Shown in pieces: positions 791 to 38,110 of a stretch of DNA of 64,000 nt (positions within the stretch are counted from its first letter, which is position 1; each line of letters opens with the position of its first letter). A program made the position numbers and the translations under genes. Where the stretch lies: positions 22,506,001 to 22,570,000 of the forward strand of contig OZ286476.1 in the NCBI GenBank assembly GCA_965644265.1, in the 5' to 3' direction. Source of the stretch: Glycera tridactyla (Eukaryota). The notes beneath the pieces were generated by a model. That model did no database searches and was not told the origin of the DNA. It worked only from the letters and a program-made list of their open reading frames with translations.

Positions 791-1269
791 TGATCATAAT
801 ATCCATTTTATTTCAGTTTCAAGGCTTCATACTACGTACTCCATCATACAGCAAGGTAGCAGTGTGTGTATATATGTGTCCATGTTGATCAGCAGTAGTA
901 CATCTCCTTAAACGGTAAGTGCATAAGTGACGTTGAACTGTGATATTCATTCAATCCACACCCTGTTGCCAGCCACTCACCCCACTCTCTACACATATCA
1001 TCATCAACCAAGAATTACAAATGAATAAACACAGTTTTAAAGTCGTACATCCCAGATATGGTTTAGATTATATTAGTTCCAGTTTATTCACGTACGGTGT
1101 CAACTTTTTGGATGTATGCAGGTATATATCTGCTAGTATCACAAATTCCGCTATTCAGTAATGGGTTCTATTCAAAGTCCAGTATGTGAAGAAATAGTTT
1201 GTTGGTCAAGTTCATTTATTATGTTATTCTCATGCATATACTAATCTTAACTTGTCATTGTAGGTAATC

Positions 1270-4200
1270 ATGGAGGATAATGATTCCAGCGATGGACAAC
1301 AGTCAACTACTACTGACACTGTCATGCCATCGACTTCAAATGATAAGCAAGAGTCTCACCATACATCAAGAGTATGTGGAAGACGTGCAACAAAAAGGGC
1401 AAGGTCGAGAGGCAGATCTAGTGAATGGGCATCCAAAGTCCGCAGAAGGAATGTCAGACCTCATCCAGACTCACTGACATCTCGACAGCGTTTAGATGAT
1501 GTAAGCATAGACAATAGTCAATATTCATTAGTCCGCCATAACGTCAGACCATTTATAAACGGATTAGGTGTCAGTATATCATTTGATTTGATTTTCTCAA
1601 GCAAACTCATTCAGTCGAATCCTAGACTGATGGACGTGAAGGACATTCTAGAGTCGGTGTTTGATGAGATTCTGACTACATTATCACAAAATACACAGTC
1701 AGATGCTCTTGTGAGAATTGTTCTGTTTCAACAGGAATTAGACTCACCGATGGTTGTGCCACTGAGGAAATTGAAGATGATGAATAGTTCACATATTCTG
1801 AACACCATAAGCAATTTATCACAGTCTAAGAAAAATGTCAGGCTAGATGAATCTCTACAAATAAAGGTTGAGATCATTCACAGTATGGAGGGTGGTGCAA
1901 GATATTCGATATCTTGCGAAAATGATAGAGACAGTAAGAGGTCTATCGTAGTCGTTAAGAATGACGATCATCTATGTTTGATACGAGCCATTTTCATTTC
2001 ATGGGCATCAGCTAACAAATTATCAGATGTAGAGTTCAAGGTCAAAGTAGAACAAACAAAATTGAGTAGAACAGATACAGCATTGAAATGCAGGTGTGTG
2101 GGTCAGTCATTTTATAAGGATCTCATAAGAAAAGGTAGGAAACAACTGACAGAATGTGTATGGAAAGTTCTCAGGGAATGTAACATTGATCCTTCAGAGC
2201 CAGTTAGACTTGAACATATTCCGTCATTGGAGGCGTACTTTGAATGTGCTATATTTGTTTTTTCGAATACATGTTCAGATAGATACTTGCGTACTCCAGA
2301 TGAGCAGGTTATAGAAAACAGTGAGACAGCGCTATTTGTATACCATACAAAGCAAGCTATAAATACATATCATTATGATGCTGTCACTAATGTAAAAGCT
2401 TTTTTCGGTAAAGGATCATACTGCAATATATGTCATACACCATACAAGGATGTGCATAAATGCAAGAAGAAATGTGAGGTGTGTCAAACTTCACAGTGCT
2501 TTTGGAATCAGAAAGGAGTTGACCAGAGGGAGATCACATGCTCTGACTGTAACATGCTATGTAAGTCTCAATTTTGTTTTGAAGAACATAGAAAGATCAA
2601 GGGGGTGAAAAAAAAAACATCACAATGTCTTAAACGCTGGAAATGTCTTCTATGTTGCAGGGTGGTGATACGAGGTAAAAACAAAAGAGCACATAAATGT
2701 GGTGAGTTCAGATGCAAAAACTGTGGATGTTACTCCAGAGACTTTCACCAATGTACCATGAGGAGTGTTAACAGTAAAGAGACAGTATCCAAGAACGACA
2801 TCCACATGTACATAGCCTATGATATAGAGACATGTCAGGACGAGATTCAACACTGTTCACAAGGATAAGTGTGCTCAAACTCTTCATTCAAGTGCAATGC
2901 CTGCACCAGATGTCGCAATTGTGGTACCATGGAGTGTGGAAGTTCGGTACACAAACCCAACCTTCTTGTTGCAGAGAAATGGTGTACATTTTGTCGGAAC
3001 ATTCCATTCAGCGAGAGTACATTCTGTTCCCATTGCGGCGATAGATGCAAAAAGTGTTCACGTAGGATTCCCAATATGGGACAATTTGCATATAGACATC
3101 CTCAGTGCGATAATAATATCTGTGGACAGAGGAGGATTATATTCCATGGACTGAATTGTGTTCAACATTTTTGTGATTGGTTGATTATGAGGAGTCATTC
3201 ACATGCTGTAGTAACAGCTCACAATTCGAGCAGATATGATTCATATTTTTTATTGAAAGAAATGCTAATCAAAAAGATCAAAGTAACGAACATTGTAGTC
3301 AATGCTGGTCAGATACTCTTTTTCAGAATCAATGCTCCTTACAGCATACGTTTTGTTGACTCTGCAAGATTCATGCCAGTAAGTTTGGCTAAACTCACTA
3401 GCATGTTCCACATGAGAGCTGATGGTGATCTGAATGAGTCAATTTCCAAAGGTTTCTTTCCTCATTTATTCAATACCACAGACAGGATTGATGATAATTA
3501 TGTCGGCTCTATGCCACCCAAAACTGATTTCATGCATGAAACTATGACTCCTGACCAGAAATCGAAGTTTGAGTCTTGGTATATGGAGAGAGTAAACGAG
3601 GGGTACGTTTTTGATTTGAAGAAAGAATTGATACGATACTGTATTAATGACGTAACCATTCTTCGAAAGGCAGTCATGCAGTTTGATGATATCATGTATA
3701 GTCATGCAAAAGTCCACCCTTTTAGAGACTGTTTCACTTTGGCATCTCTCGCTATGAGAATATACAGGAAGATGCATTTGACTGAGGTGTATGATGTCAA
3801 GCTCGAGCACAAGCAAGAAGCCAAAGTGATCAGAACTCAGGCCTTTGTCAGAGATGGTATATCTAAGGTTAGAATCGATGATAAACTTCATGTGGTAGAT
3901 ACAGTGTAGTTCCTCAGATTACAAGATCGTTTCCAGGTTCTTCAAGAACTCGTTTGTAGGAGTGTCTCCACCCAATGGCTACAGGAACAATATAAAAGCA
4001 TTCAGTAAAAAAGCAGTAGCCTGGTTGGAATACCAGGCACAGACTCGTAAGATCTCCATATTGCATGCATCTAACTTTCAAGAAATAATGATCAGAAAAC
4101 CAGATGGGTCTGTGATGTATGTCGATGGATATCACCCAGGCCAAAGCATCCCAGTAGTAAATCAGATTATAGAGCAGGTACCATCAGATGCTATAGTATT

Positions 4201-5833
4201 CTTATATCACGGTTGCCTGTATCACGGGTGTATTGAATGCTATCCCGAGAATAGAGAGAGAATGCTTTTCAAGTCATCTGGGCGGAGCTATCAGGAGTGT
4301 TATTTGAGGACAATCAAGGACCAAGAGATCCTTTCTGCGATGGGACTTAATGTTGAGGTGATGTGGGAGCACGATCATGATGCATTGATTCTCATAGATT
4401 CTCTTGCCAGGGACCTTAATCGCAACGTCCATTTTGAACCTCCTTTGAATCCCAGGGAGGCATTTTTCGGAGGTAGAGTGGAGAATATCAGACTAACATG
4501 GTGTAGAGATAAGGATGATAGAATGCTGTCTTACTATGATTATTGTTCTTTATATCCATGGGCAATGAAGTATAGAACTATGCCATTATTCAACCCTACA
4601 GTTATCACAAAGGACTTCACATGCATTGATGATTATTTCGGTCTAGCAAAGGTACTGGTTGTTCCACCCAAGAGGCTATTCTATCCAATATTACCATACA
4701 GAGCAAGAGGTAAGCTCGTATTCACACTATGCGCCAAATGTGCACATTCCAACAACCAAGAAGATGTGTGTAACTGCTCAGATAATGACAGAACACTTAA
4801 AGGTGTTTACGTAACAGAAGAGTTGAAACTCGCTGTCGAAAACGGATACCGGATTTCCAAATTTTTCGAGGTTTATCATTATGATCATAATTCAGACAAT
4901 TATCTGGATTCATTTCGTGGTAGTAATTCGAACATCTTTGAAGATTACATCAACCAGTTCCTGAAGATTAAAACAGAGAGTTCGGGCTACCCGGTAGACT
5001 GTATCAGCAATGAAGACCGCGAGAAATACATAAACGACTACTATACAAAGGAGGGCATTCGTCTTGATGCACAAAACATCGAAAATAACCCCTCAAAACG
5101 TGCAATAGCGAAGCTTATGTTGAATGCCTTATTCGGCAAATACGCCCAAAAGATTCATCGTAAACAGACCAAATTCATCACCTCAGACTATCCTCAGGAG
5201 CTGTTAAACATCATGTCTGACAGCAGAATAGATATAAGTGATTTCAACATCATTTCCAGTGACATACTATCGCTGGAATACACCGAGATGAAAGACTGCA
5301 TGAAGACCCCAGCAGTCAACAATGTCGTGATTGCAGCATTCATCACAGCATACGGGAGAATGAAGCTATATGAAGCATTGAAAAAGACACACAAGAGCTG
5401 TCTGTATATGGACACAGACTCCGTAGTTTTTGAGCAAAGTACAAAAAGCACAGTTCTCCCTCTTGGCAAGTTTCTGGGTGATCTCACCTCTGAGATACCC
5501 GATGACGTGTATATCAAAGAATTTGTGAGTACGGGTCCAAAAAGCTATTCGTACATCCTGTCAAATGGTTCGAGAATTCTCAAGTACAAAGGGTTCTCGT
5601 TAAATTCAAGGGCAAAATCAATTCTAAATATTGAAACAATGAAGAGCCTGATAAAAAATCACGAAGATGAAGAAGCTAGCACGAGCTCAATCAGTGTTCC
5701 TAACACTCTAATCAAGCGAAACAAAAAGAATCTGTCAATCACCACAACGTTTGATAGGATAAAGGATTATACATTCAATGTTGATAAGAGGAGAGTGATG
5801 AGTGATCTATCCACACTACCTTTCGGCTACTGA
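1270..5833 (+). pseudogene. polB: Protein-primed family B DNA polymerase (pPolB), disrupted by in-frame TAA at 2866-2868 and a frameshift at about 3899-3909
   Basis: ExoI YDIET, ExoII AHNSSRYD, ExoIII YCINDV; Pol motifs YDYCSLYP, KLMLNALFGK, YMDTDS. Cys-rich N-terminal region and a VSR-like nuclease insertion (VDGY...YHGCLYHGC...VMWEHD). ORFs 1270..2868 and 2869..3909 share a frame; 3962..5833 is in the next frame, open from 3899. Confidence 0.95.
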
Positions 5834-6635: not shown

Positions 6636-6830
6636 CAGTCAGTCAGTCAGTCAGTCAGTCAGTCAGTCAGTCAGTCACCCTCCTCTGCCGCCGAGCCCGC
6701 CCTCTGGGCGGGCTCGTCGGGTGTCATAATTACCGAAGCGAACGTAGACGAAGTCGGCCGACGGGGATTCGAAGTTCCTGGGTCAGTCAGTCAGTCAGTC
6801 AGTCAGTCAGTCAGTCAGTCAGTCAGTCAG
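6636..6830. repeat. (CAGT)n microsatellite split by a 106 bp GC-rich inverted copy of about 10383-10500
   Basis: 6636-6676 and 6784-6830 are CAGT runs. The reverse complement of 6677-6782 matches CCCAGGAACTTCGAATCCC...GGTAATTATGA...GGGCGGGCTC near 10383-10500. Confidence 0.9.
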
Positions 6831-8040
6831 CTCCAATGCAAGACCGCTTTCTGCTTGATATCTGTATGTAAAACAAGCTGGTGAATCCGCTGGTCGAGTC
6901 GGATTCGCGATAAAACTGCCGGTTTCTTCACAAATAGTTTTTTGAATAGGTGAATAAATACCTCTCTAACTGAGACCACCTCCGATGCGAGACCGCTTCA
7001 TATCTATACCTAAAACAAGATGATGGGCACGCTGGTCGAGCCGGATTCGTGATAGAACTGACAGTTTTCTTCACAAATTGTCATTCGAACATGTGAATAA
7101 ATACCTTGCTGAGTGAGACAACCTCCAATGCGAGACCGCTTTTGGCCTCATATCTATACATAAAACAAGATGATGAACACGTTTATTGGATGGGATTTGT
7201 GATAGAACTGATGTGAATAAATACCTCTCGAGACCACCTCCAATGCGAGACCGCTTTTGCCTTCATATCTATACATACGGTCCAGCCAGATTTGTGATAG
7301 AACTAACGGTTTCTTCACAAAGTGAGCATTCGAAGATGTGAATAAATACCTTCCATGAGTGACCACCTCTGTTGCGAGACCGCTTTTAACTTCATATTCA
7401 TACGTAAAACAAGATGGTGAATACGCTGCTCATGTCGGATTCGTGATAGAACTGATGTGAATAAATACCTCTCTCAGTGAGACCACCTCCAATGCGAGAC
7501 CGCTTCTAGCTTCATATCTATATGTAAAACAAGATGATGAGCATGCTGGTCGAGCCGAATTCCTGATAGAACTGACGGTTTCTTCACAAATAGTCATTCG
7601 AACATGTGAATAAATACCTGTCTGTATGAGACCACCTCCAATGCGAGACCGCTTTTGGCTTCATATCTATACGTAAATCAAGATAATGAACACGATTATT
7701 GAGCCGGATTTGTGATGGAAATGATGGTTTCTTCACAAATAGCTGTCAAAGTGAGCCCTCGAGATGTATCATGTTTGTGTATCTACTCGAGCTGTGACGA
7801 AAATAACCGAGTGTACCCGAACCTGCGCCCGGCTTAATATAGTCAAATATGTGAATAAATACCTCTCGAGACCACCTCCAATGTGAGACCACTCTGGCGA
7901 ATATAGTCGTCAAACTTCATATCTATACGTAAATTAGGATGGTGAATACGCTGGTCAAGTCGGATTTGTGATAGAACTGACAGTCTCTTCATAAATAGTC
8001 GCCAAAGTGAGCATACAATAGGAATGTGTATCTGCTCGAG
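6831..8040 (+). repeat. Left arm of tandem array, ~8 units of 115-145 bp with core GAGACCACCTCCAATGCGAGACCGC
   Basis: Cores near 6832, 6972, 7114, 7230, 7360, 7480, 7628 and 7868; shared GTGATAGAACTGA and TGTGAATAAATACC. Confidence 0.9.
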
Positions 8041-8189
8041 TCCACAGAGTTAGATGAGGGGAGGGGGGTTGCTGGTGGGGTGTAGCGCTGACCCTAATCT
8101 GAGGGAGCCTACCAGCCGCATATTTGACTTTATCTAGCCTACTTATTCTAGCCAAGCACAGGTTCGGATCCACTCGGATATTTCCGTCA

Positions 8190-10190
8190 AGACAGGAGTA
8201 GATACACATTCCTATCGAATGCTCACTTTGGGGACTATTCATGAAAAAACCGTTAGTTCTATCACAAATCCGACCCCATCAGCGTGTTCATCGTCTTGTT
8301 CTACGTATAGACATGAAGTTTGAAGACTATGATCGTTAAAGCGGTTTCACATTGGAGGTGGTCCCGAGAGGTATTTATACGTATATTTGACTGTATCTAG
8401 CCGAATGCAAGATCGGCTACACTCGACTATTTCAGGCCGAGTGTAGGTTCGGATTCATTCGGCTATCTCCGTCACGGCATGAGTAGATACACACTCCTAT
8501 CGAATGCTCACTTTGGAGACTATTTTTGAAGAAACCGTTAGTTCTATCACAAATCCGACCCCATCAGCGTGTTTATCGTCTTGTTTTACGTATAGACACG
8601 AAGTTTGAAGACTATGATCGTTAAAGCGGTCTCACATTGGAGGTGGTCTCGAGAGGTATTTATACGTATATTTGACTGTATCTAGCCTACTTATTCTAGC
8701 CGAGCACAGGTTCGGATTCACTCAGCTATCTCCGTCACGGCACGAGTAGATATACATTCCTATCGAATACTGACTTTGATGACAATTTGTGAAGAAACCG
8801 TTAGTTCTATCACAAATCCGACTCCATCAGCGTGTTTATCGTCTTGTTTTACGTATAGACTTGAAGGGGTCTCGCATTGGAGGTGGTCTCACACAGAGAG
8901 GTATTCATTCACATCAGTTATATCACAAATCCGGCTCGACCAGCGTATTCCCCGCCTTGTTTTACGTATAGATATGAAGTCAAAAGCGGTCTCGCATTGG
9001 AGGTGATCTCACCGAGAGAGGTATTTATTCACATCTTCGAATGACTATTTGTGAAGGAACCGTTAGTTCTATCACAAATCCGGCTCGATCAGCATGTTCC
9101 CCATCTTGTTCTATGTATAGNNNNNNNNNNNNNNNNNNNNNNNNNNNNNNNNNNNNNNNNNNNNNNNNNNNNNNNNNNNNNNNNNNNNNNNNNNNNNNNN
9201 NNNNNNNNNNNNNNNNNNNNNNNNNNNNNNNNNNNNNNNNNNNNNNNNNNNNNNNNNNNNNNNNNNNNNNNNNNNNNNNNNNNNNNNNNNNNNNNNNNNN
9301 NNNNNNNNNNNNNNNNNNNNNNNNNNNNNNNNNNNNNNNNNNNNNNNNNNNNNNNNNNNNNNNNNNNNNNNNNNNNNNNNNNNNNNNNNNNNNNNNNNNN
9401 NNNNNNNNNNNNNNNNNNNNNNNNNNNNNNNNNNNNNNNNNNNNNTCTTGTTTTACCTATTGATATGAAACGGTCTCGCATCGGAGGTGGTCTCACTGAG
9501 AGGTATTTATTCACATCTTCGAATGACTATTTGTGAAGAAACCGTTAGTTCTATCACGAATTCGAGTCGATCAGCGTGTTCATCATCTTGTTTTACATAT
9601 AGATATGAAGGCAAAAGCGGTCTCACATTGGAGGTGATCTCACTTGGAAGGTATTTATCAAGAAACCATCAGTTATATCACAAATCCGACTCGAGCAGCA
9701 TGCTCACCATCTTGTTTTACATATAGATATGAAGGCAAAAGCGGTCTCACATTGGAGGTGATCTCACTCAGCGAGGTATTTATTCACATGTTCAAATGAC
9801 TATTTGTGAAGAAACCATCAGTTCTATCACGAATCCGACTGGACCAGCGGATTCACCAGCTTGTTTTACATACAGATATCATGCCAGAAGCGGTCTCACA
9901 TCCGAGGTGGTCTCAGTTAGAGAGGTATTTATTCACATGTTCAAATGACTATTTGTGAAGAAACCGTCAGTTCTCTTGCGAATCCGAGTGCAGCAGCGTG
10001 TTCATCGTCTTGTCCTACGTATAGATATGAAGCCAAAAGCGGTCTCAAATTGGAGGTGGTCTCACTCTGACAGGTATTTATTTGTATATTCTATCGCAAA
10101 TCCGATTCAAGCAGCATGCTCATTATCTTGTTTAACATATAGATATGATGCGGTCTCACACCGGAGGTGGTCTTACTCAGCGAGGTATGT
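8190..10190 (-). repeat. Right arm of the same array in inverted orientation, at least 10 units, with an N gap at 9121-9445
   Basis: Core reads GCGGTCTCRCATTGGAGGTGGTCTC near 8340, 8626, 8868, 8987, 9471, 9620, 9741, 9890, 10040 and 10149. Confidence 0.9.
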
Positions 10191-10298
10191 TTGACTGGCT
10201 GGCTGGGAGAGGTATGCCTGACTGCTTGTTTGTGTCACGCTCCAATTCCCAGGGGGACTTGCCACCAGACCTCTCTCATTCACCCTCAGTCAGTCAAC

Positions 10299-10446
10299 AT
10301 GGGAGCCTGCACGATCACCCTCTGGTGCTTCTGCTACCACCTCATCCAGGGCAAGATCATGAGCTGTCCGGACTTCCCGCCGCCCAGGAACTTCGAATCC
10401 CTGTCGGCCGACTTCATCTTCGTCCGCGGGACGCCCTTCTCCTTCG
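10299..10446 (+). CDS. Candidate first coding exon (signal-peptide-like MGACTITLWCFCYHLIQG...) of the antisense membrane-protein gene, or a stand-alone 98 aa ORF 10299..10595
   Basis: ATG at 10299; strongly C/G-ending codons up to a phase-1 donor TTCG|GTAATT at 10446/10447, after which the composition changes. Confidence 0.35.
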
Positions 10447-10663: not shown

Positions 10664-12010
10664 TTACGATGCCGGAAACACGTTTCTGCCTTCGTCGATC
10701 GACATGACGGCCGGAAACATGGCGTACAGAACGAGGACGATGCTTTCGGTCAGGTTCGAAGCGAAGCGCAGGGTCAATCGCGTGGTGCCCATCTGGCGTT
10801 GCTGCGTGAACTCGTTCTGGAGCATGTGGGGCATGATGTCGAAGACGATGAAGCAATAGCCGTTCTTGTACTCCTCTCTCCCGATCATCGGAAATTGCCC
10901 GGTTTGCTCGTTTTTTGCGTGAGCCAGCGTCGAATAGGCTTCCAGATATCGGTCGTTTTCGAAATCCGTGTTGATCGGTCTGTTCGGCACGCTCTGTCCG
11001 TTCACCTCGAAAGAAATGGACGACAGCTTGAAATGCTTGAACACGAACGGGTTCTTGTTGTAGGCGCCATTGAAGTTCGCTTGGGGTACCATGCCCACGA
11101 TCAATCTCGTCGGCGTCCTGCCGTTGAACGGGTTGTCGTACTGGTCGCCGCTGGTTCCGTCTTTGATGATCCACGTCTTGGTATCGCATCTCGTGTAGGG
11201 ATACATGGCGGGTCTGACCGCGAGCGCTTCGCCGTGCGCCAGAAATACGGAGGGCGAAACGTTCAGCATGGGCACCCTGACGAAGGTGTTGGTGATCTCG
11301 ACCTTGTAGTTCCCGGTCGCGCTACTGCAGATCAGTCTGAAGGCGTCCGTGCTCTGGCGGAACTTCAGTTGGAGTTGACACGCGTTCAACAGATACCGTC
11401 CGCACTTGAAGAGGTCCAGGTGGATGCGACCGATCAGCTCGATTTCCGTCGACTCGCTCGTCCTCTCGGCTCGTTTGGCCAGCTTGAGATTGACATTGGT
11501 TGCGGCCGCGAGCTGTGCCGCGGTCCGTTTCGGAACGGCGTCGTCCAACGTTCCGGCCTCCTCCTTGTCGAACATGCCCATGCTCAGCGGCGCGATCGTT
11601 TCCGATTCGTTGGCGTTCAGTAGAATGTCCATCATGGACTTGTCGGGATAATTCGACTGACATTCCACCATCTTTTGCGAAATGTAGCATTCGACAGCAC
11701 CGAAGAAGGACAAGATCGGCATGTTCGCCAGTGCCACCCCGTCCGTCGATGCGAGATCGCCACCGTCGCTCTTGACGATCTTGACCTTCAGATGCAGGTT
11801 CATGCGTTCCAAATCGATGTACATGCGCTGGTTTCCCGTGATGCTGAACTCCAGCGGCGAATAGCTGTTTATGGCCGCCACTGGACCGTAGTCGACGTGA
11901 TTGCGCGACTCGATGGAGACCTCTCGCGGCGGGAGGTTGAACAGTGCCATGGACGACACGTATCCCCAACCTCGGTCCGTGGAGTCGGGCGGGCTCTCGG
12001 ACGTGTCCAT
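10664..12010 (-). CDS. Major capsid protein (double jelly-roll, hexon-like/PY), intact 448 aa
   Basis: Polinton MCP-type N-terminus (ALFNLPPREVSIE...Y.P...I...SPLEFSI.G...YIDL); C-terminal NG..VP..P, GYCFIVFD and G..RL.LRFA motifs. Confidence 0.92.
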   Translation of the reverse strand: MDTSESPPDSTDRGWGYVSSMALFNLPPREVSIESRNHVDYGPVAAINSYSPLEFSITGNQRMYIDLERMNLHLKVKIVKSDGGDLASTDGVALANMPILSFFGAVECYISQKMVECQSNYPDKSMMDILLNANESETIAPLSMGMFDKEEAGTLDDAVPKRTAAQLAAATNVNLKLAKRAERTSESTEIELIGRIHLDLFKCGRYLLNACQLQLKFRQSTDAFRLICSSATGNYKVEITNTFVRVPMLNVSPSVFLAHGEALAVRPAMYPYTRCDTKTWIIKDGTSGDQYDNPFNGRTPTRLIVGMVPQANFNGAYNKNPFVFKHFKLSSISFEVNGQSVPNRPINTDFENDRYLEAYSTLAHAKNEQTGQFPMIGREEYKNGYCFIVFDIMPHMLQNEFTQQRQMGTTRLTLRFASNLTESIVLVLYAMFPAVMSIDEGRNVFPAS

Positions 12011-12918: not shown

Positions 12919-14058
12919 TCAACTGTGTGGAACGTGCGTGACCTCCTTCGCGTCTATCCATGAGTTGAACTTGTTGTGGAAGCCTTTCCACTTGACGTAC
13001 ACCTGTTCCCTTCCATCCAGCACGCGTCTCTTGACGATCTTTTCTATGTCGTACAGTTGATCCGCGTCGGCCGTGTCGCGCACTGCCTGTAGTTCGCTTT
13101 CGTAGAAACTACCTTGCAACCGCTCGCCGTCTTGATCTCTTATGAAGTACACGGGCATGTCTTGCCTCTTTATGACCGAGTCTACGTAGTAGATCTCTCT
13201 GGTCCATCTCTCCGCGTACTCTCCGTACATTTTCTCGCGTCTTTTGGTAATTCTCACCGATTGACCTACACCGTATCTCGGCTTCTTGTTGACTTAGCTC
13301 GCATAATTCCTGGGCTTCCGCTTTTGACGACTGACGTATTGTGCGTATCTGACTTCGTGTTCGTTGTCGGCGTTCACTTCGTTCGGCGTACATCCGATGG
13401 AGCTGTGATAGGTGTCGTTGTATCCTCGAACAAAATCCTGTAGCTTGTCTATGTAACGCTCTGTGCGGTTCTCGTTCATGTATTTTTTAATGCGCTTCTT
13501 GAGCGATCTCCACACTCTTTCGATGAATGCGCATTGCGCCGTGCCGTGAGAGAAATAGTGACCCATGTCGTTTGTTTCTAGGTATTGCAAAAACTTGCTG
13601 TTGGTGAACTCGCTGCCCATGTCTGTCCTCAGACTGTTGCATTTTGCTCCCGCCTCTCGTAACACCGACTCAAACGCTTCTATCACGTTGTCACCGGTCT
13701 TTGTTTGGAGCGGTCTCACATACAGCTTTCTACTGAATATGCAAATGACACCCAACAGGTATCCGGTGTTGGAATTACGTTTTCGCAACTTCTGGTAATC
13801 GCACAGATCCGCTTCCCATATGTCGTTTATCCCGTTGGAAATGACGTTCGACTTTGGGAACTTGAACCGCGCCTCCTTGTTCAGCATATAACTATCCCGG
13901 GTCTGTAACCACCTTTTCACGTCGCTCAGCGTGATCTTGAACCTGGTGTTTTTTCTCACGGCCTTGTACACCTTGTCCGGCGATTGGAAACTACCGGCAG
14001 AGCGCGGATCTGTATAGTGTCTTTTGAGATAATCTTCGCCCTTTTTCGTTAGGACCAT
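12919..14058 (-). pseudogene. int: Retroviral-like (rve) integrase with C-terminal chromodomain, one in-frame TAA at 13294-13296
   Basis: DDE: WEADLCD, LRTDMGSEF, FIERVWRSLK. The frame continues RNYAS*VNKKPRYGVGQSVRI...WTREIY, then the chromodomain YDIEKIVKRR...YVKWKGF...NSWI. Confidence 0.93.
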
Positions 14059-14060
14059 CG

Positions 14061-14546
14061 TTACGATTTATTCTTGTTGAATTTTGGCGTAGGTAGCATT
14101 TGGCCGTACGAAACGCCCAGCATCAAAATCCAAACCTGTCTGTTCTGCGCGTTCAGACTGAGTAACACAATGCTGCACACCACTGTTATTATCGCCAGCA
14201 GGGACTGCGTGTAAAATATCTCCCTCGACTGGTTTGTTCTCTTATGAATTATGGGATCGAAAATTATTCCCCTGGGGTTGACTGAGCCGTTTACCGACGT
14301 GTTTTCGGCCGACGTCTTCTCCTGTTGCGTTTTTTTAATTCTGGGACAGGGTAGCATCAGTCCTATTCCGGTAGAAAGATATATGATCCACACCTGATCC
14401 TCGTCGTGTCCGATCGCGATGTTGATTATGCTAGCAATCACCACCAGAAATATCATGGACGCCTGTATGTAAAACACCTCTCTCACTAACACGTTCCGAC
14501 GGATCCACGATCTATCGACATCTTGCTCTTCGGTGGATTCCATCAT
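14061..14546 (-). CDS. Predicted four-TM membrane protein made of two similar halves
   Basis: EVFYIQ...VWIIYLSTGIGLMLPCP and EIFYTQ...VWILMLGVSYGQMLPTP, each with two hydrophobic segments. First ATG at 14546. Confidence 0.75.
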   Translation of the reverse strand: MMESTEEQDVDRSWIRRNVLVREVFYIQASMIFLVVIASIINIAIGHDEDQVWIIYLSTGIGLMLPCPRIKKTQQEKTSAENTSVNGSVNPRGIIFDPIIHKRTNQSREIFYTQSLLAIITVVCSIVLLSLNAQNRQVWILMLGVSYGQMLPTPKFNKNKS

Positions 14547-15106
14547 CACTCGTTGCTACCTTTATGCAAACAAGATACACTTATGCGTTCCTGCAGGGAT
14601 TCTAGAGCGCGGACAACGCTGATCTGACTCTTCTCGTTGTGTTTCATCCCCGTGATGATGACGACGCCCGACGAGTGTATCAAGAACTTTATTCGTTTAC
14701 CGACCCTCCAAATGAGCGCGTTGAATATCTCCGGTTCGTAAGTTGCGTTCTTCAAATTCAAGCGACGCAGGTCCGGCAGTGGAGTTAACCTGACAGTTGC
14801 CGATATCGTGTTGATCTTGATCCTCTCTAGACGGGGACTCAGACCTTTTCTCTGCAATAGTCTGGCGTATTGTCGAACTTTCTTCTTAGCCAGTTCGACG
14901 GAATTTGCTCCGTGTACCGATATATAACCATTACGGAAAATGAGAGCGGTCGATTTGATCCGTTTGTGACGCCAGACGATGTTACTCATCTTGGGATTGA
15001 CGACGATTCTGGAACAGTTGCGATACATCCAATCAGAGTCTATTGACGTGTTCAAATTTGCGCTGGCAACGACATTAGTTATGCAAATGTCTACATTCTG
15101 ATCCAT
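14546..15106 (-). CDS. Divergent TATA-box-binding protein (TBP)-like protein, intact 186 aa
   Basis: Both TBP repeats align by eye: ITNVVASANL, NPK, TALIFRNG..SVHGANS, KKVRQYARLLQRKG, KINTISAT, YEPEIFNALIWR, FLIHSSGVVIITG. Confidence 0.88.
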   Translation of the reverse strand: MDQNVDICITNVVASANLNTSIDSDWMYRNCSRIVVNPKMSNIVWRHKRIKSTALIFRNGYISVHGANSVELAKKKVRQYARLLQRKGLSPRLERIKINTISATVRLTPLPDLRRLNLKNATYEPEIFNALIWRVGKRIKFLIHSSGVVIITGMKHNEKSQISVVRALESLQERISVSCLHKGSNE

Positions 15107-15675
15107 CTCTGTTCTAGTAGCTTTCTCTGTTCGTCGATGCTCTGGCGGACTTTCTTCAAGTCGAGCTTTGTCGGTTTTACCCGTTTTCTCGGTACGACCT
15201 CGTCCTCTACTACGATAGATGGCAACTTCTTTCCTTTCTTCGTTCGCTCTTCCAATCGTTTAACTGTCCTTTTTCGTTTCCTGTTTGTAGGTGCACTGCC
15301 AGACGACTCCACCACGTCCCGTCCGACTGTCGAGGAGGTGCGGGATGATTCAACGAGTGCTGCCTCGGATGGTACAACCGGCACTTCGACTGTCGGGATA
15401 GATGCCGCAACGATCGCACTATCTGACGAATTGACTAGTCCATCAACGTCAACAGCAGTTTTATCGACGGATGCATCGACCGCGGTCCGTCAAGCGACAT
15501 CATCCGGAGCGAAGACTGACGACGCCTCGACCGTGGACCGTTGAGCGATGTCGACTGCAGTTTTGTTGGCGGAATCTACCGCAGTCGACGGTTCCACCAC
15601 CAACATATCCGACGAAGATCCTTCTAGACGCGACTTGGGTAAGATGATATATTCCCTCACTTCCTTCGATGCCAT
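15091..15675 (-). pseudogene. Polinton ORF of unknown function (S/T/D-rich middle, K/R-rich C-terminus), one in-frame TGA at 15490-15492
   Basis: ORFs 15490..15675 and 15091..15384 share a frame and are joined by open codons (DVA*RTAVDASVDK...TVEVPVV). It overlaps both neighbours. Confidence 0.65.
15291..15638 (+). other. Candidate Ser/Thr-rich (mucin-like) exon, phase 1-1, with internal TGA at 15542-15544
   Basis: Acceptor TTTTCGTTTCCTGTTTGTAG|, donor TTGG|GTAAGA; 348 nt. The pyrimidine tract could instead reflect Lys/Arg codons on the opposite strand. Confidence 0.3.
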
Positions 15676-15995
15676 ATAAGTCTCTTGGCCGATCTGTACA
15701 ACAACAACAGTATGTCGTGAATGCTGTCCTGATTATCGATCAATAAGGCCTTTTTCTTCTTCAACGACGTCCTCCGCGATGCAAGCACTCGAACCAGCGG
15801 TTTCAAATCCACCAGCGATTTCTTTGTGGAATCCGACAGCGGAAGAATGCCATACAACGCGTTGTGCGCGAGTTCGGATATCGCTTTGATCTGCTTGTTG
15901 GATATGGATTGAAGAAGCTTGTTTCTGACCCAGGCTCTCCTCCCGGCCAGTACTAACATGGAAATGAATGGTCCAGACTCTCTTATGAGCTCCAT
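15657..15995 (-). CDS. Conserved small Polinton protein (PW-like; probably the family labelled GasderminX in adintoviruses)
   Basis: LL...S.KQIKAISELAHNALYGILPL.....K.L...K..VRVL....TSLKKKK.LL pattern, located next to the ATPase. Family name is from memory. Confidence 0.65.
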   Translation of the reverse strand: MELIRESGPFISMLVLAGRRAWVRNKLLQSISNKQIKAISELAHNALYGILPLSDSTKKSLVDLKPLVRVLASRRTSLKKKKALLIDNQDSIHDILLLLYRSAKRLIWHRRK

Positions 15996-16029: not shown

Positions 16030-16740
16030 TTATGAATAGAATGTACACGTTTCACCCGGAAATATGTCTGTTCTCAAACGCAGATAGTTTGGCATGTTCA
16101 CGGTCATGTCCACAACCAGATATCCGTACCGTCTGTCGATTACGGATTTCTCGTAAGCCTTTGGGAGCAAGAGCTTATTTGTTGGGAACCGCTGTCTTCC
16201 AAAAACCTTGATCTGATCAGATGCGGCTGGTGTTTCGAACAGGATCACGTATCCGGCATTCACTGCGATAGTCTTGCTGAATTTACCTTGCTGAAATAGA
16301 TTGTGGCTCACGAAAACCATGGAGCAACCGCTGTGGTGGCATCTGACTGTAAAGAAGTCCATCACGTCTGTCGAATCCACAATTTCTCTCATGAGATCGT
16401 CCAGTACGATTATCAAATGATGCGAGCTCGGATCACAGTGTTCCAAAATCTCGTCTTGAGATAGTAAACCCTGGTGAAAGATTACGCAATCTAACTCGTT
16501 ACGGATCTGGTCAAATAACGGTTGGTAATTTTTGTAACAATACAAGATGTGATGCGGTTTGTCGCTCTCAATTAAGAACTCCTTGTTTGTGAGAAATCTG
16601 TGAAGAAAACTGGTCTTTCCTGCACCAGATCTACCCACTAAGATATAACACTGGTTGAGTTTGAATTTGATGTATCCGTTCTCGCCGTCCAACGAAATCA
16701 AGTCAGACCACACGGGATCCAGTTGCTTGAGACGGCTCAT
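16030..16740 (-). CDS. A32/FtsK-like genome packaging ATPase, intact 236 aa
   Basis: Walker A GRSGAGKT, Walker B IIVLDDL, RCHH...VSHNLF, C-terminal YGYLVVD...LRTDIF. Confidence 0.95.
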   Translation of the reverse strand: MSRLKQLDPVWSDLISLDGENGYIKFKLNQCYILVGRSGAGKTSFLHRFLTNKEFLIESDKPHHILYCYKNYQPLFDQIRNELDCVIFHQGLLSQDEILEHCDPSSHHLIIVLDDLMREIVDSTDVMDFFTVRCHHSGCSMVFVSHNLFQQGKFSKTIAVNAGYVILFETPAASDQIKVFGRQRFPTNKLLLPKAYEKSVIDRRYGYLVVDMTVNMPNYLRLRTDIFPGETCTFYS

Positions 16741-17075
16741 ATCTTAATCGGCTCCCGCAATTGGTGGTTGTGTGCCGCGTAGAATATATCTGTCAACTCT
16801 TTGGCCTTTGATGGAAATTTGTCCATTAAGATCGAGGTTAACTCCCACAACACTTTGACTCTTCCCCAATTCCACTTCCCATCATCAAACATGTACCGCA
16901 AGATGGCCCTGTATTGATGTACGGAGGTAATATCTCTGCTTATGATGCCGATAGATTCCGTAATCCTGCGATCTAGCGATTCCAGTATAACATCCACTCT
17001 CTTATGACTTACAGACGAAGACGATGACGACTTGTTGCTCGAGACATCCATTCTGACGTCCTTGGTTGCGTTCAT
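16737..17075 (-). CDS. Small Bcl-2-like protein (BH1 motif)
   Basis: YRAILRYMFDDGKWNWGRVKVLWEL matches BH1 (F..V..ELF.DG..NWGRIV.L..F). No clear BH2 or C-terminal TM. Confidence 0.72.
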   Translation of the reverse strand: MNATKDVRMDVSSNKSSSSSSVSHKRVDVILESLDRRITESIGIISRDITSVHQYRAILRYMFDDGKWNWGRVKVLWELTSILMDKFPSKAKELTDIFYAAHNHQLREPIKI

Positions 17076-18875
17076 TGGAGTGTGCGGTTTAGCTGTTTAC
17101 GCGTATAAGAGACATCGAGGTGAGTCACTTATAACAAGGGAAAGACTACGAATATGTGTTGTAGCTGCAATAGATACCTACATGTGATATTTCTGATGCG
17201 GTTCTACTACTGTTCTGCAAAGTCCGGCTGTTTACGACTTGAAACACGTATATCTTTCACGTGGCGTAGTGTAATTCTACTATATATATATATATATATA
17301 TATACAGTCTGACTGGCCAAGTGTGATGGCGACACATATGATGTTAAACCAACGAATGACAAACAGCATATGTTGTAATTGTGTTTATTGGTGCCGATAC
17401 AGGTGTATACATATATATATGAATATAACAATTCAATGAATACATTGCAATATATATAATTCTACTAATACGGATGTAAGCATGTCTCGTCCTTGTTTCA
17501 GGTGTCATCCCTCTCAGGTTGCCGGTTGCGGTCGATATACCCATGATACCTGTGGATTCCGGGACGGCTATGAATTCAGGTGAGTAGAGCTCAATGAACG
17601 TGGTACAGTACAGTGTTCGCGTTGCCTACATACTAACTATATATGTAGTATATGATTAATATAGAGCTCACAATGTGCGGCATGAATAAATGCTACATTC
17701 ATCATTTACACTGTACAAGTTCGTACTAGGAGGATCATCGAGTTACGTGAACTAAGATTCCCGGGATATGAGATTACATGAACGTAATCTCTCTCACAAT
17801 GTCTATACCGTTATAGGATCCTGTAGTCAAGTTCAGATAGTTTAATTGTAGTTTATGATGAGGATCACGAGTAGTAAAGTTCATACTGCTCAATTGCAGT
17901 TCATGATGGGGATGACGAAGAGGAAGACGAGATTGACGACAGCACTATATTCACTGTTGTCAATGAGGAGACCATAGTCGAGGAAGGAGCACGGGGGAAT
18001 GTGGCGTCGACACCTTTGTTAAAAAGCATGCCCAGACCATCTGATGAAATCACTGTCATAGAATCGGGCAAACCTCGTGCCAAGATCAACCTTCGTGATG
18101 TCGAAAAAGCTCTCAGTAACCTCTCCATTGATGACACAGTATATCGTCCCGGCGAGGAAGCAACATCAGAAGTGCACGGCGTGATAGATGAGATGAATCT
18201 TGATAACACTGTCTACCACAAACTCCATGGAGATAAAGAAGACATCATCTTCCCCCGACGTGGCACCAGAGAACGTAGACCAGGTAATCACTCATTCTCT
18301 TGCACATCGATCTCGATCCCGATCTCTGTATTGAACTCATCCACGTGCATCTTCATCTCTGCAAATTCTTCTGTGTTCAGATGAATCCCCCTCAAACCTG
18401 GCTGCAATGTACCGTCTTTAGCCTCGTAGTATTCCCTTAGCTGTAGTAGCTTGTAATCATTGTTCATAGACACGTGCTGGTTCGAATCCAAAGCAAACTT
18501 GAACTCTTGTCGATTGCCTGCCATGATTTCGTCGACGGCTGCCTGGATGGTATCTAGCTTCTTGATGAACTCTTTCCATACCGGCTGAGCCATGGTGTAT
18601 CTTCGAATCCTCAAGTGGCTGCTCTTTCGTTGGAATGAAAACCTCGACATCACCACCATGGTTGATCTGGGAGTGTAGGCTATCATGGTCTCTGCTTCAT
18701 GGGCCACGCTCAGCACCATTCTGACTGTTCCACGTGCATCTGGAATTAATACTTTTGATTAGTAAGGTTGTAACAATATGGTATATACATTGTAAATGTG
18801 AGATTACGTGTCTCGAGTATGAATACAATACTATTACACAATGATCTGTTCTCATTTGCAGTTGATCGATACTGA
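17015..18875 (+). CDS. Spliced single-pass membrane protein, exons 17015-17119, 17502-17579, 17900-18283, 18862-18875 (5' exons uncertain)
   Basis: All junctions are canonical AG/GT and phase 1 (CTTACAG|, |GTGAGT, TTGTTTCAG|, |GTGAGT, ATTGCAG|, |GTAATC, ATTTGCAG|). The joined frame is open: DEDDDDLLLETS-ILTSLVAFIGVCGLAVYAY-KRHR, an acidic tail, ending RPVDRY*. Confidence 0.7.
18288..18719 (-). CDS. PC4/Sub1-like ssDNA-binding transcriptional coactivator domain protein
   Basis: LLQLREYYEAKDGTLQPGLRGIHLNTEEFAEM matches the PC4 pattern IDIREYW...G...PGRKGISL..EQW. A degenerate second copy is probable in the N-terminal half. Confidence 0.8.
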   Translation of the reverse strand: MVLSVAHEAETMIAYTPRSTMVVMSRFSFQRKSSHLRIRRYTMAQPVWKEFIKKLDTIQAAVDEIMAGNRQEFKFALDSNQHVSMNNDYKLLQLREYYEAKDGTLQPGLRGIHLNTEEFAEMKMHVDEFNTEIGIEIDVQENE

Positions 18876-19263: not shown

Positions 19264-20136
19264 CTAATTCTCTAATTGACACACGTCGAAGGACAGAAAG
19301 TAATGGAATTGTGCCAATATGTCAAATGTCCATAGCTCATTGTCTGCGGTGTAGAGCATGATCAACACATATTTGAGTACATCCTGGTAGCCTGTATGCG
19401 GTTGCTGGTGCCTCATGGCATTCAGAATTTTACGAAGGTGTGTGGGAGAGGCGACTCCATCGATCATTTTGTGAAAATCTGATGGGAGTTGGTAATCGTG
19501 TCCTTGAAAATAGGACTCATCGAAGTTGTTCTTGTTGATGTACACCGATAAAAAGTTGAAATAGGTGGCCAGCTCCTCTGTGGTTGGATAGCCTCTACTG
19601 CGACCAGATTCACAGATCTCAGACAGTCTTTGTGCATACAGCTGGTCAGTATCTTCACGCCTGAAAGGTATAATCATCTCAAGCACAGGTTCGACCACCT
19701 GAATGTTGAACATCCAGTTCAGTATGAAGTTAGTGAAAGTATGAATGATGGGGATGAATGCTCTTGGAGAAACACCCAGCAGCCTCTTGCAGATTATGAT
19801 CATCAGTAATATCTCCTTGGATGTGCAGCGGCCTTGATTGAACAGATCAAACAGGACCTCACTGAACATATCCCTCCCAGTAATCTTGGAACATACATGA
19901 TCCATGTATGCATTCACCTTCAGAGTGTAGGGATGTCTCCAATCAAAATGCCAGTATGACTCCTTCTCTTGATTTGCAATGCGATGAAAATATGCCATCA
20001 CTTCTTGCAGTGACCATTCTCGCTCTGATGATATATCAAAATGAGATGGTGCTGCAGCTGTTTCAAAATCCTGATATAGCTCAACCTCCTCAAACTGTTC
20101 TACCATCTGATCAACGGATGTCTCTAAAGTTGTCAT
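19264..20136 (-). CDS. Uncharacterised helical protein, paralog A (290 aa)
   Basis: Long intact ORF; colinear similarity to 20460..21311. Confidence 0.8.
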   Translation of the reverse strand: MTTLETSVDQMVEQFEEVELYQDFETAAAPSHFDISSEREWSLQEVMAYFHRIANQEKESYWHFDWRHPYTLKVNAYMDHVCSKITGRDMFSEVLFDLFNQGRCTSKEILLMIIICKRLLGVSPRAFIPIIHTFTNFILNWMFNIQVVEPVLEMIIPFRREDTDQLYAQRLSEICESGRSRGYPTTEELATYFNFLSVYINKNNFDESYFQGHDYQLPSDFHKMIDGVASPTHLRKILNAMRHQQPHTGYQDVLKYVLIMLYTADNELWTFDILAQFHYFLSFDVCQLEN

Positions 20137-20459: not shown

Positions 20460-21311
20460 TCATACTTCCATTCTGCATACATCGACGGCTACGAATAAAT
20501 AGAATTGGAATAGATAATCGTAGTAGCATGATCCATATTCAGCAGCCTTCAACGTGATTAGTATGTATTTCAGTACTTCTTCATATCTCGTGTGGAATAC
20601 CTCTCTGTGCATAACATTCAGGATTTTACGAAGATGGAGGGGGGATTTTACTTGTTGTACCATTGTATGGAATGCACTGTGATATTGAAATTCATATCCC
20701 TGTAAGCAGTTCTCAGCAAAGGGTTCTCTGAGTATGTATACACACATCGTATTGAAATAACTGGCTAGGTCTTCTGTGGTCATATGCCCATTGAGATTGT
20801 ATGGTCTGATACATGAACGCATCACCTTTGAATAATTTTGGTCATTCAATTCACGGTTGTAGGTGATTGTCATGCAAGTTTCAGGATGTGTCATTTTGAT
20901 GTTTAACAACCAACCGGTTATGGTTTGTGTGAAAATGTTAACAATCCGTATCAATGCACGAGGAAACAACCAAGCCAATCTGCTGAATATCAAAACCATC
21001 ACCAATATGTCTGTGTGGCTGCAGCTGCCATCCTTCACCAAATCAATCATGATCTCAAACAGCATATCATTCCCCCTGATTTTGGTGCATACATAGTCGA
21101 AATATGTGTTCACAGTGTATGGGTCCAACTTATTCCAAATATATCTATGAAGAGTATCCTTATGTAGTGATGAGACCGCCATGAAATATGCACTCATATC
21201 CTTTATTTCCCATTCATCTCGGTCCTCTTCCAGAGACTCTTTCTCGGAATCCATCCTGCTTATTCGACTATTCGATTGTAAATGAGCTACACATTCCATA
21301 ACATCTTCCAC
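20460..21311 (-). CDS. Uncharacterised helical protein, paralog B (283 aa)
   Basis: Shared with paralog A: W....AYF, VC.KI.G.D, FPRA/SPRA, TTE.LA.YFN, SP.HLRKILN.M, VLKY.LI.L, F..DVC. Confidence 0.8.
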   Translation of the reverse strand: MEDVMECVAHLQSNSRISRMDSEKESLEEDRDEWEIKDMSAYFMAVSSLHKDTLHRYIWNKLDPYTVNTYFDYVCTKIRGNDMLFEIMIDLVKDGSCSHTDILVMVLIFSRLAWLFPRALIRIVNIFTQTITGWLLNIKMTHPETCMTITYNRELNDQNYSKVMRSCIRPYNLNGHMTTEDLASYFNTMCVYILREPFAENCLQGYEFQYHSAFHTMVQQVKSPLHLRKILNVMHREVFHTRYEEVLKYILITLKAAEYGSCYYDYLFQFYLFVAVDVCRMEV

Positions 21312-21427
21312 AATGCCATCTCATATACTATAGTCTAATATACATGTACACCATGGTAGATATATTCAGCTGCTGTCATAGTGCCCCGTTCCTGGTAGAT
21401 AGCTGTTATACAGCCCCTCTAACTACT

Positions 21428-34744: not shown

Positions 34745-35125
34745 CTGGAAGTCCATATACCAAACCTGGTAATGGGATCAAACCCGGTTATTCAGAATAA
34801 TATATATATATATATAGACCCAGAGTATACACTCCTTGTCTACTACGAAGTTCATATACCATTCCTGGTAATGGAATCAAACCCAGTTGTTTAATATATA
34901 CAAGACCCAGAGCAAAAGTCCATGTCTACTAGGAAGTTCATATACCATTCCTGGTAATGGAATCAAACCCAGTTATTTATTAATAATGATAGGACACGGA
35001 GCAGAAACTCCTTGTTTAACAGGAAGTTCATATACCAGCTGGTAATGGAATCGAACCTGTTTATCCATATGATATACAAGACCCGGAGAAAACTCCTTGT
35101 CTATCAGGAATTTCATATTCTGTTA
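34745..35125. repeat. Four to five ~90-100 bp tandem repeats in the DIRS 3' region
   Basis: Recurring GAAGTTCATATACCATTCCTGGTAATGGAATCAAACCC variants near 34750, 34850, 34937 and 35026. Confidence 0.8.
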
Positions 35126-36230
35126 TCAGTGATGTAATCAAACCCAATTATGAATGTGAATATAACTATAACTACACATATGTAGGGATTATTAATCAAT
35201 TGAGCTACCACAAGTGGACCTAATGAGTACAGATTGAGAGCCTGGCCATGCATGTCTCGAAGATAGAAGGCGGCAAACCTGAAACCAGACTTCCAAAATG
35301 CTGCCCTCATTAGTTCATCCACAAAATGACCTTGATTAAACGACTTCCAAGAGGTTTCCATGACTCGTCTCATGAGCTGAAACATTTTCTGGTAGTTCAT
35401 CTGATTTATCAGCTTTGTCATAAGCCATTTTGACGACTTGCTGAATCCATGTAGAGGTCCTGTCAAGTTTGATCTCTCTCTGTGGAGATCTACAGGGAGG
35501 TATGAAAAGTCTAATTCTTCTACCTCTGAAAGGTTATACTCTGCTCAAATATGTGTGTAGTGCCTTAACCGGACACACTGAGTTCTGTATTCCACTGTTC
35601 ACCGGAATAGCTGGAATAACAACCTCTGGTTGTCCTGACAATGGACTCTGATTCTTTGCCAAGAACCCAGGTGCAGCAAACAATCTGACACTGGACAGGT
35701 CTGCAGCGAATCTCACTGCTTTGTCAGAACCTGAAAATGCATGTATCTCACTCCTCCTATTGCCTGGAGCAAGAGTAATAAGCAATACTACTTTCCTGGT
35801 GAGATTCAGGAAACTACAAGAAGTGACGGGTTCAAAGGTCTTAGAAAGTAAAAATCTTAAGACAAAGGACAAATCCTATTGTGGAACCATTCTTTGAACC
35901 ACTGGCCTGTCCCGAAAGAAATTATTCAGCAGAGATTTGACATCTCTTTCTGCAAGAACATCACAACCCGTATAAATAAAAACAGATTGAATAGCGTTCT
36001 GTACCTCTGACAGTAGATGGAGATAGTCCTGACTCGAAAAGTTCGATCAGAAATTCTACCAATTTTGGTGTAGAGGGGTGTGCACAATCCACTCCCCTGT
36101 TCTCACACTAGAAGGTTCATTACTTCCACCCACTGTCATAGCTTTAGCTGATGAATCTCTGACTGAGCGAGTGATCCGCTCCGCAGCCTTTGCTGAGTAA
36201 CCCTTTCTGGAGAGGGTGCTCCTTGTGGTC
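35113..36230 (-). pseudogene. DIRS tyrosine recombinase, fragmented
   Basis: LSRKGYS, FEPV...LTRKVVLLITLA..NRRSEIHA, FLAK, CPVKALHTYL, MRAAFWKS..F..FYLRD, LGPLVVAQ. Confidence 0.88.
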
Positions 36231-36239
36231 AGGTTCATT

Positions 36240-38070: not shown

Positions 38071-38110
38071 GGCCTCTGGGATGAGAAAAGGTAACCTTAC
38101 CTTCTTGTTT

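Follow-up and report, generated by a model that had tools for sequence, protein, structure and literature searches.

A truncated Bcl-2-family gene under purifying selection in Polinton elements of Glycera tridactyla

Introduction

A stretch of 64,000 nucleotides from the genome of Glycera tridactyla (contig OZ286476.1, positions 22,506,001 to 22,570,000; here called the window) carries a short minus-strand open reading frame, immediately upstream of a packaging ATPase gene, that contains the Bcl-2 signature NWGR. In a first-pass annotation the frame was read as a mini Bcl-2-like gene in a Polinton, and its presence there was taken to imply control of apoptosis during a true viral cycle. The locus thus raises the question of whether this frame encodes a Bcl-2-family protein, which parts of such a protein are retained, whether it is maintained by selection, and what it may do for the element.

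Sequences and methods

Copies of the element were collected from the 2.04-Gb genome assembly, and seven Pfam-positive cellular Bcl-2-family exons were used as the host set; host exons L020 and L021 were omitted from the tree because they are too short upstream of BH1. Transcripts were viewed in three public contig sets of one study, which are strandless and whose kind was guessed as RNA. The query for the adenain-type protease was the protease of another Polinton family in the genome.

The element and its mini Bcl-2 gene

The features of the element are summarized in Table 1. A pPolB gene, an rve integrase, a packaging ATPase, a major capsid protein and terminal inverted repeats, i.e. the criteria for Polintons/adintoviruses, are all present, which bears out the placement of the gene in a Polinton; the weak Pfam matches of the capsid and ATPase genes also align to the genes of other Polinton families. 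No adenain-type protease was found at E<=0.05 in the window element and three related copies by single-sequence tblastn, a search of low sensitivity. No counterpart of the TATA-binding-protein homologue appears when the retrieved sister and distant families are mapped by tblastn. The genome holds a minimum of 150 scored Polinton ATPase matches (514 candidates), many of them near-identical, so that several Polinton families have expanded recently. Elsewhere in the window (35100-39500 and 43600-45800), decayed retrotransposon-like frames were recognized, DIRS/gypsy-like by eye (RT, RNase H, recombinase, gag-like).

Table 1. Features of the window element, with tandem-double ORFs of related elements
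Feature	Position	Strand or length	Remarks
Protein-primed DNA polymerase B (pPolB)	1264..5833	plus	three ORF pieces in the window copy
Predicted first coding exon, antisense gene	10299..10446	plus	inferred; Met, signal-peptide-like start, phase-1 donor
Major capsid protein	10664..12010	minus	double jelly roll-like; Pfam weak, E=0.068
rve integrase	13294..14058	minus	followed by chromodomain ORF 12919-13230
TATA-binding-protein (TBP) homologue	14546..15106	minus	Pfam E=4e-29
Ser/Thr-rich (36%) exon	15291..15638	plus	premature stop in the window copy
Packaging ATPase (A32/FtsK-like P-loop)	16030..16740	minus	Pox_A32 E=0.044, weak
Mini Bcl-2-family ORF	16737..17075	minus	112 aa; end of helix 2 to about helix 6/7
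BH1 region M62-L76	16848..16892	minus	NWGR codons 16860-16871, residues 69-72
VDVILESLD	16971..16997	minus	positional equivalent of C-terminal half of helix 2; without BH3 Gly-Asp
Transmembrane exon	17015..17119	plus	acidic stretch, TM helix, basic stop-transfer; AG/GT ends, phase 1-1
78-nt exon	17502..17579	plus	
384-nt acidic exon	17900..18283	plus	predicted cytoplasmic tail; spliced to 18862, frame ends after 4 codons
PC4-domain gene	18288..18719	minus	upstream neighbour common to other mini-Bcl-2-bearing Polinton groups
290-aa all-helical ORF	19264..20136	minus	possible highly degenerate double mini-Bcl-2
279-aa ORF	20460..21299	minus	38% identical paralogue of the 290-aa ORF; like two-part match, weak
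Right terminal inverted repeat	21359..21427	69 bp	98.6% to inverted copy ~400 bp upstream of the window
Tandem double mini-Bcl-2 ORFs	L056:2325-3032, L118:106-876, L121:221-1027		C4, C11, C31; distant families, next to PC4 genes

The mini Bcl-2 ORF is confirmed; its product comprises 104 aa if translation begins at the second Met (17051), as in most copies, and M9 is the start in 8 of the 10 open genome copies, giving 95-103 aa. The BH1-like segment MFDDGKWNWGRVKVLWEL represents residues 62-79 of the 112-aa protein, and VDVILESLD residues 27-35. NWGR was found intact and in close BH1 context, as first described: the pattern F.DG.{1,2}NWGR[VI] is matched a single time in a six-frame translation of the window and in none of 60 base shuffles, and NWGR[VI] alone is expected 0.07 times per base shuffle of the window. 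Searches with the mini gene and with the ATPase alike gave 13 loci of the window's family in the genome; the mini Bcl-2 gene is present in all 13 (10 open, 3 broken), with NWGR in 10/10 open copies and the W-N-W-G-R context in 9/10.

The stop codon of the gene and the start codon of the ATPase overlap as ATGA (16737-16740), and this overlap is kept in all 10 open copies of the family. The coupling emphasized in the first-pass annotation is thus real here, but it loses weight across Polintons, since in two other groups the gene lies at least 8 kb from the ATPase, past the capsid gene and directly behind PC4; PC4, rather than the ATPase, is the usual neighbour of mini Bcl-2 across Polinton groups. 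In the three contig sets, depth over 16707-17077 may derive from an antisense exon (see below) and not from the mini Bcl-2 ORF.

Bcl-2 homology and predicted fold

The Pfam Bcl-2 profile (PF00452) matches the window protein over profile positions 25-69 only, with E=3e-4 and 21.7 bits (cut-off 31.4), and it matches 11 of the 12 members of alignment A2, the best with E=9e-7. Searches of the PDB placed Bax first, both by phmmer with the window protein (E=0.003) and with the A2 profile (E=3e-6), the latter followed by NRZ/A1 and Mcl-1. Judged by these sequence comparisons, the protein is a Bcl-2-family homologue, and the initial assignment of the gene holds.

The AF2 model (20 sequences; pLDDT 80) has four helices (residues 18-48, 52-62, 70-86 and 88-107), and its first 20 residues are of low confidence and poorly conserved. 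Helices 2 and 3 are merged in one 31-residue helix, so that the model does not show a preformed groove. Superposition by VIA placed residues 34-112 on Mcl-1 219-310 (Z 6.9, 3.0 A, 79 residues) and residues 16-87 on a protomer of the Bax core dimer (8spe_C; Z 6.5, 3.3 A, 71 residues, 27% identity), with Z 6.2-6.6 for Bax/Bak core-dimer protomers. The Z of 6-8 for Bcl-2 matches falls within the range of generic helical bundles: in a wide VIA search, Bcl-2-family proteins were found in 7 of the best 50 rows, and unrelated helical bundles were equal to them (top Z 7.2). With Foldseek, 40 of 42 among the matches listed were Bcl-2-family proteins, all at E>=0.33 and none at E<=0.001; the BFVD fold search also gave none at E<=0.001, and viral Bcl-2-type proteins make up five of its first 24 rows. 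In the ESM Atlas the top three clusters were Bcl-2 or poxvirus Bcl-2-like (score 0.78, leads only). The predicted structure is consistent with Bcl-2 homology and is not decisive, the structural scores being not significant alone.

Parts lost and residues kept

BH2 and the transmembrane anchor are absent, as had been noted from the sequence. No G[G]W was found in 15/15 minis, whereas 6/7 host exons have it, and no TM segment was found in the same 15/15 (best 19-residue hydropathy 0.3-1.43; 0.67 for the window protein); the stop that overlaps the ATPase start leaves no room for a downstream anchor part. The structural alignment stops at Mcl-1 310, and the protein ends 44 residues past the Asn of NWGR. 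An end point 39-46 residues past NWGR was observed in 12 of 14 single-domain proteins, most of them from other sources. BH4/helix 1 and the full bundle (up to eight helices around helix 5) are absent as well, the model having four helices. No minus-strand splice joint to an upstream BH4-helix exon was seen in the contigs, which is a weak absence.

For VDVILESLD, a BH3-like spacing had been proposed. V27, I30 and L34 align to Bax L63, I66 and L70, and L34-D35 to Bax L70-D71, whereas L31-E32 take the place of Bax G67-D68, i.e. the BH3 Gly-Asp position. Gly-Asp occurs at the BH3 columns in 0 of 21 aligned rows, relatives do not conserve the segment, and those of 73-74 aa begin downstream of its equivalent. 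The segment is therefore BH3-like by hydrophobic spacing only, and its reading as a functional BH3 is not sustained.

In 21 aligned domains, the exact NWGR is present in 8 (4 of these from the window's own family), the Trp in 11, G71 in 16, Arg or Lys at 72 in 19, and the acidic residue at D65 in all 21. For the first-pass annotation, a predicted fold unlike Bcl-2 together with loss of NWGR among homologues would have spoken against the claim; the predicted fold is Bcl-2-like, and the exact motif is kept in a minority of the domains. Positions outside the groove are also among the best kept (S/T51, 19/21; aromatic 55, 20/21; E78, 15/21; P88, 15/21).

Helix 5 carries a charged stripe of K74, E78, S81 and D85. 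Glu occupies the E78 position in 15/21 minis and 0/7 host rows; human Bcl-2 bears Glu at the equivalent position. K74 occupies a site that is hydrophobic (Val/Ile) in 7/7 host rows, and helix 5 holds 2.9 charged/polar residues in minis vs 1.1 in host paralogues, rows that are not independent. Relative to Bax, F93, A97, V111, Y115 and L122 are replaced by R56, R60, K74, E78 and D85, while the positions of F100, F114 and S118 are kept or similar (F63, W77, S81). Overall, the protein is Bcl-2-derived, yet it falls short of full membership in the multi-BH class, as BH2, BH3, BH4 and the anchor are missing; it has lost what a family member needs to anchor in a membrane or to serve as a BH3 donor.

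Selection and spread across Polinton families

Between subfamilies, dN/dS on codons 23-112 is 0.10-0.21 (Fisher p 2e-3 to 3e-7), close to the 0.13-0.18 of the ATPase; overall, values for the gene range over 0.1-0.24. In comparison with the 54%-identical copies L009/L010, synonymous sites are saturated and NWGRVKVLWELTS is unchanged. In sister families (ATPase 52-55% identical), orthologues of 93-96 aa precede the ATPase in 8/17 loci, with NLAK, DHGR or DNSK for NWGR and dN/dS of 0.14-0.22; a full ORF before the ATPase was not found in the other 9/17 loci, where the gene is thus dispensable or decayed.

As had been recommended, homologues were sought in other Polintons, and both single and tandem-double forms were found. 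A distant family has a 103-aa NLGR form with at least 22 matches (15 retrieved). Tandem doubles gave at least 14 matches with frames of 243-269 aa plus one truncated, and four such elements were mapped; their first domain carries NWGR or HIGR, BH1 of the second is decayed, and dN/dS is 0.14-0.48. Families with tandem doubles also carry an adenain-type protease, as shown for L056. These 103-aa and tandem-double forms represent the two groups with the gene behind PC4.

Outside the genome, a profile gave 8 representatives among 1.84 billion entries plus 3 further clusters, i.e. 11 clusters; these relatives are of 73-133 aa, except one of 169 aa, and none is named. Of the outside homologues P0002-P0015, three come from contigs 1.1-2.4 Mb long. 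A single-sequence search of 5.8 billion proteins gave no candidate, scans of IMG/VR and JGI metagenomes with A1 gave 50 and 198 pattern matches with 0 confirmed, and no longer or fused form (297-2000 aa) was found with profile A4 at E<=0.01 among 7992 candidates, which is weak evidence.

In a 40-column tree, 12 minis, chosen by their own profile, stand apart from 5 host paralogues (100/98). Neither a Bax-like nor an Mcl-1-like host donor is separated by BH1-window identity (0.246 vs 0.244), nor by the tree. One host exon of 356 codons (L019:754-1821, C40) encodes a Bcl-2 domain over the Pfam cut-off with, by eye, a CARD-type death-fold-like domain ahead of it.

Mini Bcl-2 is a selected, widespread accessory gene over several Polinton families of one genome. 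Purifying selection, its presence in 13/13 family copies, and the single and tandem-double forms in other families argue that it is not a decayed fragment.

An overlapping spliced antisense gene

Four GT..AG joints of the plus strand (15638^17015, 17119^17502, 17579^17900 and 18283^18862) are contained in the three contig sets; all are in phase 1, and the reading frame continues through them. The predicted first coding exon has a homologous frame and phase-1 donor in a diverged copy; no contig shows it joined to 15291, and in one contig a repeat-array unit is joined there instead. The gene lies opposite the whole virion module and is predicted, from its sequence, to encode a type I membrane glycoprotein with a signal-like start, a Ser/Thr stalk, a TM helix and an acidic tail; Pfam searches with its exons gave nothing meaningful.

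The transmembrane exon covers the first 20 codons of mini Bcl-2, and its acidic run is antisense to poly-Ser, which explains the Ser-rich, odd N-terminus of the mini protein. Splice sites, phase and TM helix of this exon are kept in the diverged copies L009/L010; the exon is broken in 6 of 10 copies examined, and a similar TM helix was recognized in 12/17 sister-family loci (best-window scan, by eye). No description of an antisense spliced Polinton gene was found in the accessible text of the literature searched on Polinton splicing. Annotation by ORFs only would miss such overlapping spliced genes in Polintons.

Between the PolB and capsid genes lies a repeat array (6800-10200) of ~150-bp units in both orientations, with (CAGT)n runs, inverted fragments of the predicted first antisense exon, and units with donor-like sites; it is present in two related copies and not in the diverged copy. 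A low-complexity minus-strand ORF (15090-15680), located between the 112-aa mini Bcl-2 gene and TBP and antisense to the Ser/Thr exon, is interrupted by a stop in the window copy.

The 290-aa and 279-aa neighbour ORFs

Two paralogous, all-helical ORFs inside the element (Table 1) are conserved in other element copies (35-100%). With a weak two-part mini-Bcl-2 profile match, 3 of 6 homologues beat the best of 1200 shuffles, and the 290-aa window protein did not. VIA gave Bcl-2 folds in 9 of the best 50 rows (Z 4.5-5.7); for a Bcl-2-like identity of the 290-aa protein, Foldseek and ESM Atlas gave none, and hhalign gave a probability of 0.35-3.3%. The profile matches hint that both ORFs may possibly be degenerate double mini-Bcl-2 genes.

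Proposed function and alternatives

We tentatively propose, at somewhat less than an even chance, that mini Bcl-2 blocks host apoptosis as a soluble decoy for BH3 helices, probably in dimeric form. It would bind the BH3 helices of the host's pro-death proteins, and apoptosis would be delayed during replication of the element. Helices 2-5 are described as building the BH3-binding groove (PMC11209288, excerpt), the Arg conserved in BH1 is the partner of the Asp in BH3 (PMC7022251), and a D68-R109' pair is reported for the Bax dimer (PMC8280806, excerpt). Because the helices that build the groove (2-5) and the Arg of BH1 are retained, the BH3 helix of Bax/Bak or of BH3-only proteins would be the likely ligand. 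The missing anchor and the charges on the lipid face of helices 4/5 suggest a cytosolic protein that forms no pores. Loss of helices 1 and 8 would leave helix 5 exposed, and a partner copy would probably complete the fold; a dimer is suggested by the missing terminal helices together with the existence of fused tandem doubles. Against a decoy stand the loss of BH2/helix 8, by which the canonical groove is closed at one end, K74 at a hydrophobic Val/Ile site, the exact NWGR in only 8/21 domains, the merged helices 2 and 3 of the model, and the 9/17 sister-family loci where no full ORF was found before the ATPase.

The main rival, because orthologues without NWGR are still selected, is a Bcl-2-fold scaffold redeployed outside apoptosis, in the manner of the poxvirus blockers of NF-kB/innate signalling, with a vestigial BH3 groove; we consider it rather unlikely. 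The NLAK, DHGR and DNSK orthologues and the decayed second domains of the tandem doubles are under purifying selection, so that selection need not act on BH3 binding; several of the best-kept positions (S/T51, aromatic 55, E78, P88) are non-groove ones, the 290-/279-aa ORFs may be still more degenerate versions, and the third ESM Atlas match, as a lead only, is a poxvirus Bcl-2-like cluster (0.78). Arg or Lys at 72 in 19/21 domains, G71 in 16/21 and the retention of NWGR by the window's family across saturated synonymous distance point away from it, and so does the fact that poxvirus signalling inhibitors usually lose their BH motifs. Non-groove NF-kB roles of Bcl-2-like proteins are known (PMC7022251, in part). 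A more far-reaching form of the decoy, which we regard as unlikely, is that Polintons hold their own 'half Bcl-2' lineage, the smallest natural Bcl-2 fold: a naturally evolved mimic of the activated Bax/Bak core, in solubilised form, which would act as homodimer or fused tandem pseudo-dimer and cap growing Bax/Bak oligomers via BH3-in-groove contacts, with motif-less paralogues including the 290-/279-aa neighbours, and interleaved with the antisense membrane-glycoprotein gene as an adenovirus-E1B/E3-like host-control region.

A late or structural accessory for the virion or for packaging, made together with the packaging ATPase by co-translation and only incidentally of Bcl-2 origin, is improbable: the ATGA overlap (10/10 open copies) and the position before the ATPase in 8/17 sister-family loci fit it, but in the two PC4-linked groups the gene is far from the ATPase, and short overlaps are unspecific, as other module genes overlap too (TBP and the next gene at 14546, 1 nt). 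Slightly less probable still is a constitutively open, Bax-core-like protein that is pro-death or membrane-damaging, for particle release or toxin-like. Bax is the top sequence match, the model fits the Bax/Bak core-dimer protomer, and the helix 1 and tail that restrain Bax are absent; however, there is no BH3 Gly-Asp for dimerising and no anchor, charges (R56, R60, K74, E78, D85) lie on the lipid-facing side, and BH1-window identity and tree favour neither a Bax-like nor an Mcl-1-like donor. With the substitution F93E, Bax binds lipids and forms pores less well (PMC8280806), and R56/R60 at the F93/A97 lipid-face sites thus argue against a pore former, though the F100, F114 and S118 sites stay similar. 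Very improbable, and refuted in the main by the selection test, is the reading of the gene as a captured host Bcl-2 in decay, or as a frame kept only by the antisense exon. The truncated architecture, the 3/13 broken copies and the conserved antisense exon over the first 20 codons would agree with it, but the low dN/dS was measured on codons 23-112, outside the overlap, and a like end point recurs in 12/14 single-domain proteins.

If the decoy reading with its BH3 binding is true, the family defines the minimum Bcl-2 fold that still blocks death and offers a natural test of groove function without helices 1 and 8; through the Polinton mini Bcl-2, apoptosis in invertebrates could also be approached. 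That many Polinton families of one animal genome carry an anti-death gene under selection would support, without proof, replication in cells that otherwise kill themselves. The 'true viral cycle' of the first-pass annotation goes too far: mini Bcl-2 alone does not prove a viral cycle, since purifying selection shows use in replication of the element and not virion production, and a BCL2-like domain is also carried by planarian Burro retrotransposons (PMC6431247, in part).

Comparison with known systems

A Bcl-2 gene in a Polinton is already known, so that the novelty first attached to it falls away: adintovirus Bcl2 and IAP homologues have been reported (Starrett et al. 2021, PMC8502044), with Bcl2 labelled three times in the Beta-PolB maps of Fig S2, once as Adintoc5:Bcl2, and most mammal-associated adintoviruses encode anti-apoptotic homologues according to the accessible part of a preprint (Buck et al., 10.1101/2024.03.25.586562). 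The adintovirus Bcl2 belongs to the same element class and gene family as here, and may be full-length or this very family; the excerpted text of PMC8502044 holds neither its architecture, selection or mechanism nor an NWGR string. A bcl2 match in 10.1101/2024.01.25.577265 was rejected, being the program bcl2fastq. No description of a truncated or tandem Polinton Bcl-2 was found in the literature searched, which covers few subscription journals and whose supplements may hold it; neither the half-size, tandem and motif-decayed forms nor the antisense overlap seem to have been described before.

Cellular Bax and Mcl-1/A1/NRZ share with mini Bcl-2 the BH1 NWGR and superposable helices 3-6. In contrast to cellular multi-BH proteins, it has no helix 1/BH4, BH3 Gly-Asp, BH2 or TM, carries the charged stripe on helix 5, and remains below the Pfam cut-off. 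The protomer of the Bax/Bak core (helix 2-5) BH3-in-groove dimer has a nearly equal span; that core, however, is an engineered fragment of an activated pore former, whereas mini Bcl-2 is a natural gene, the product of which lacks the BH3 Asp, retains helix 6 and has charges on its lipid side. The features of the Bax/Bak pore formers, i.e. BH3 motif, non-polar helix 4-5 surface and anchor, were not found in it.

Among viral proteins, iridovirus GIV66 is a homodimer through the groove and binds Bim, TFV ORF145R has only BH1 and TM recognisable, and vaccinia N1 is an anchor-less, cytosolic protein of 117 aa (all from the accessible text of PMC11209288). All three are small viral Bcl-2 folds and in this resemble the predicted mini Bcl-2, the model of which matches GIV66:Bim with Z 6.3 (VIA). 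GIV66 and ORF145R act at mitochondria, the latter with a TM segment, whereas mini Bcl-2 is without an anchor. GIV66 and N1 keep the whole helical bundle, and unlike them the mini Bcl-2 family drops both terminal helices.
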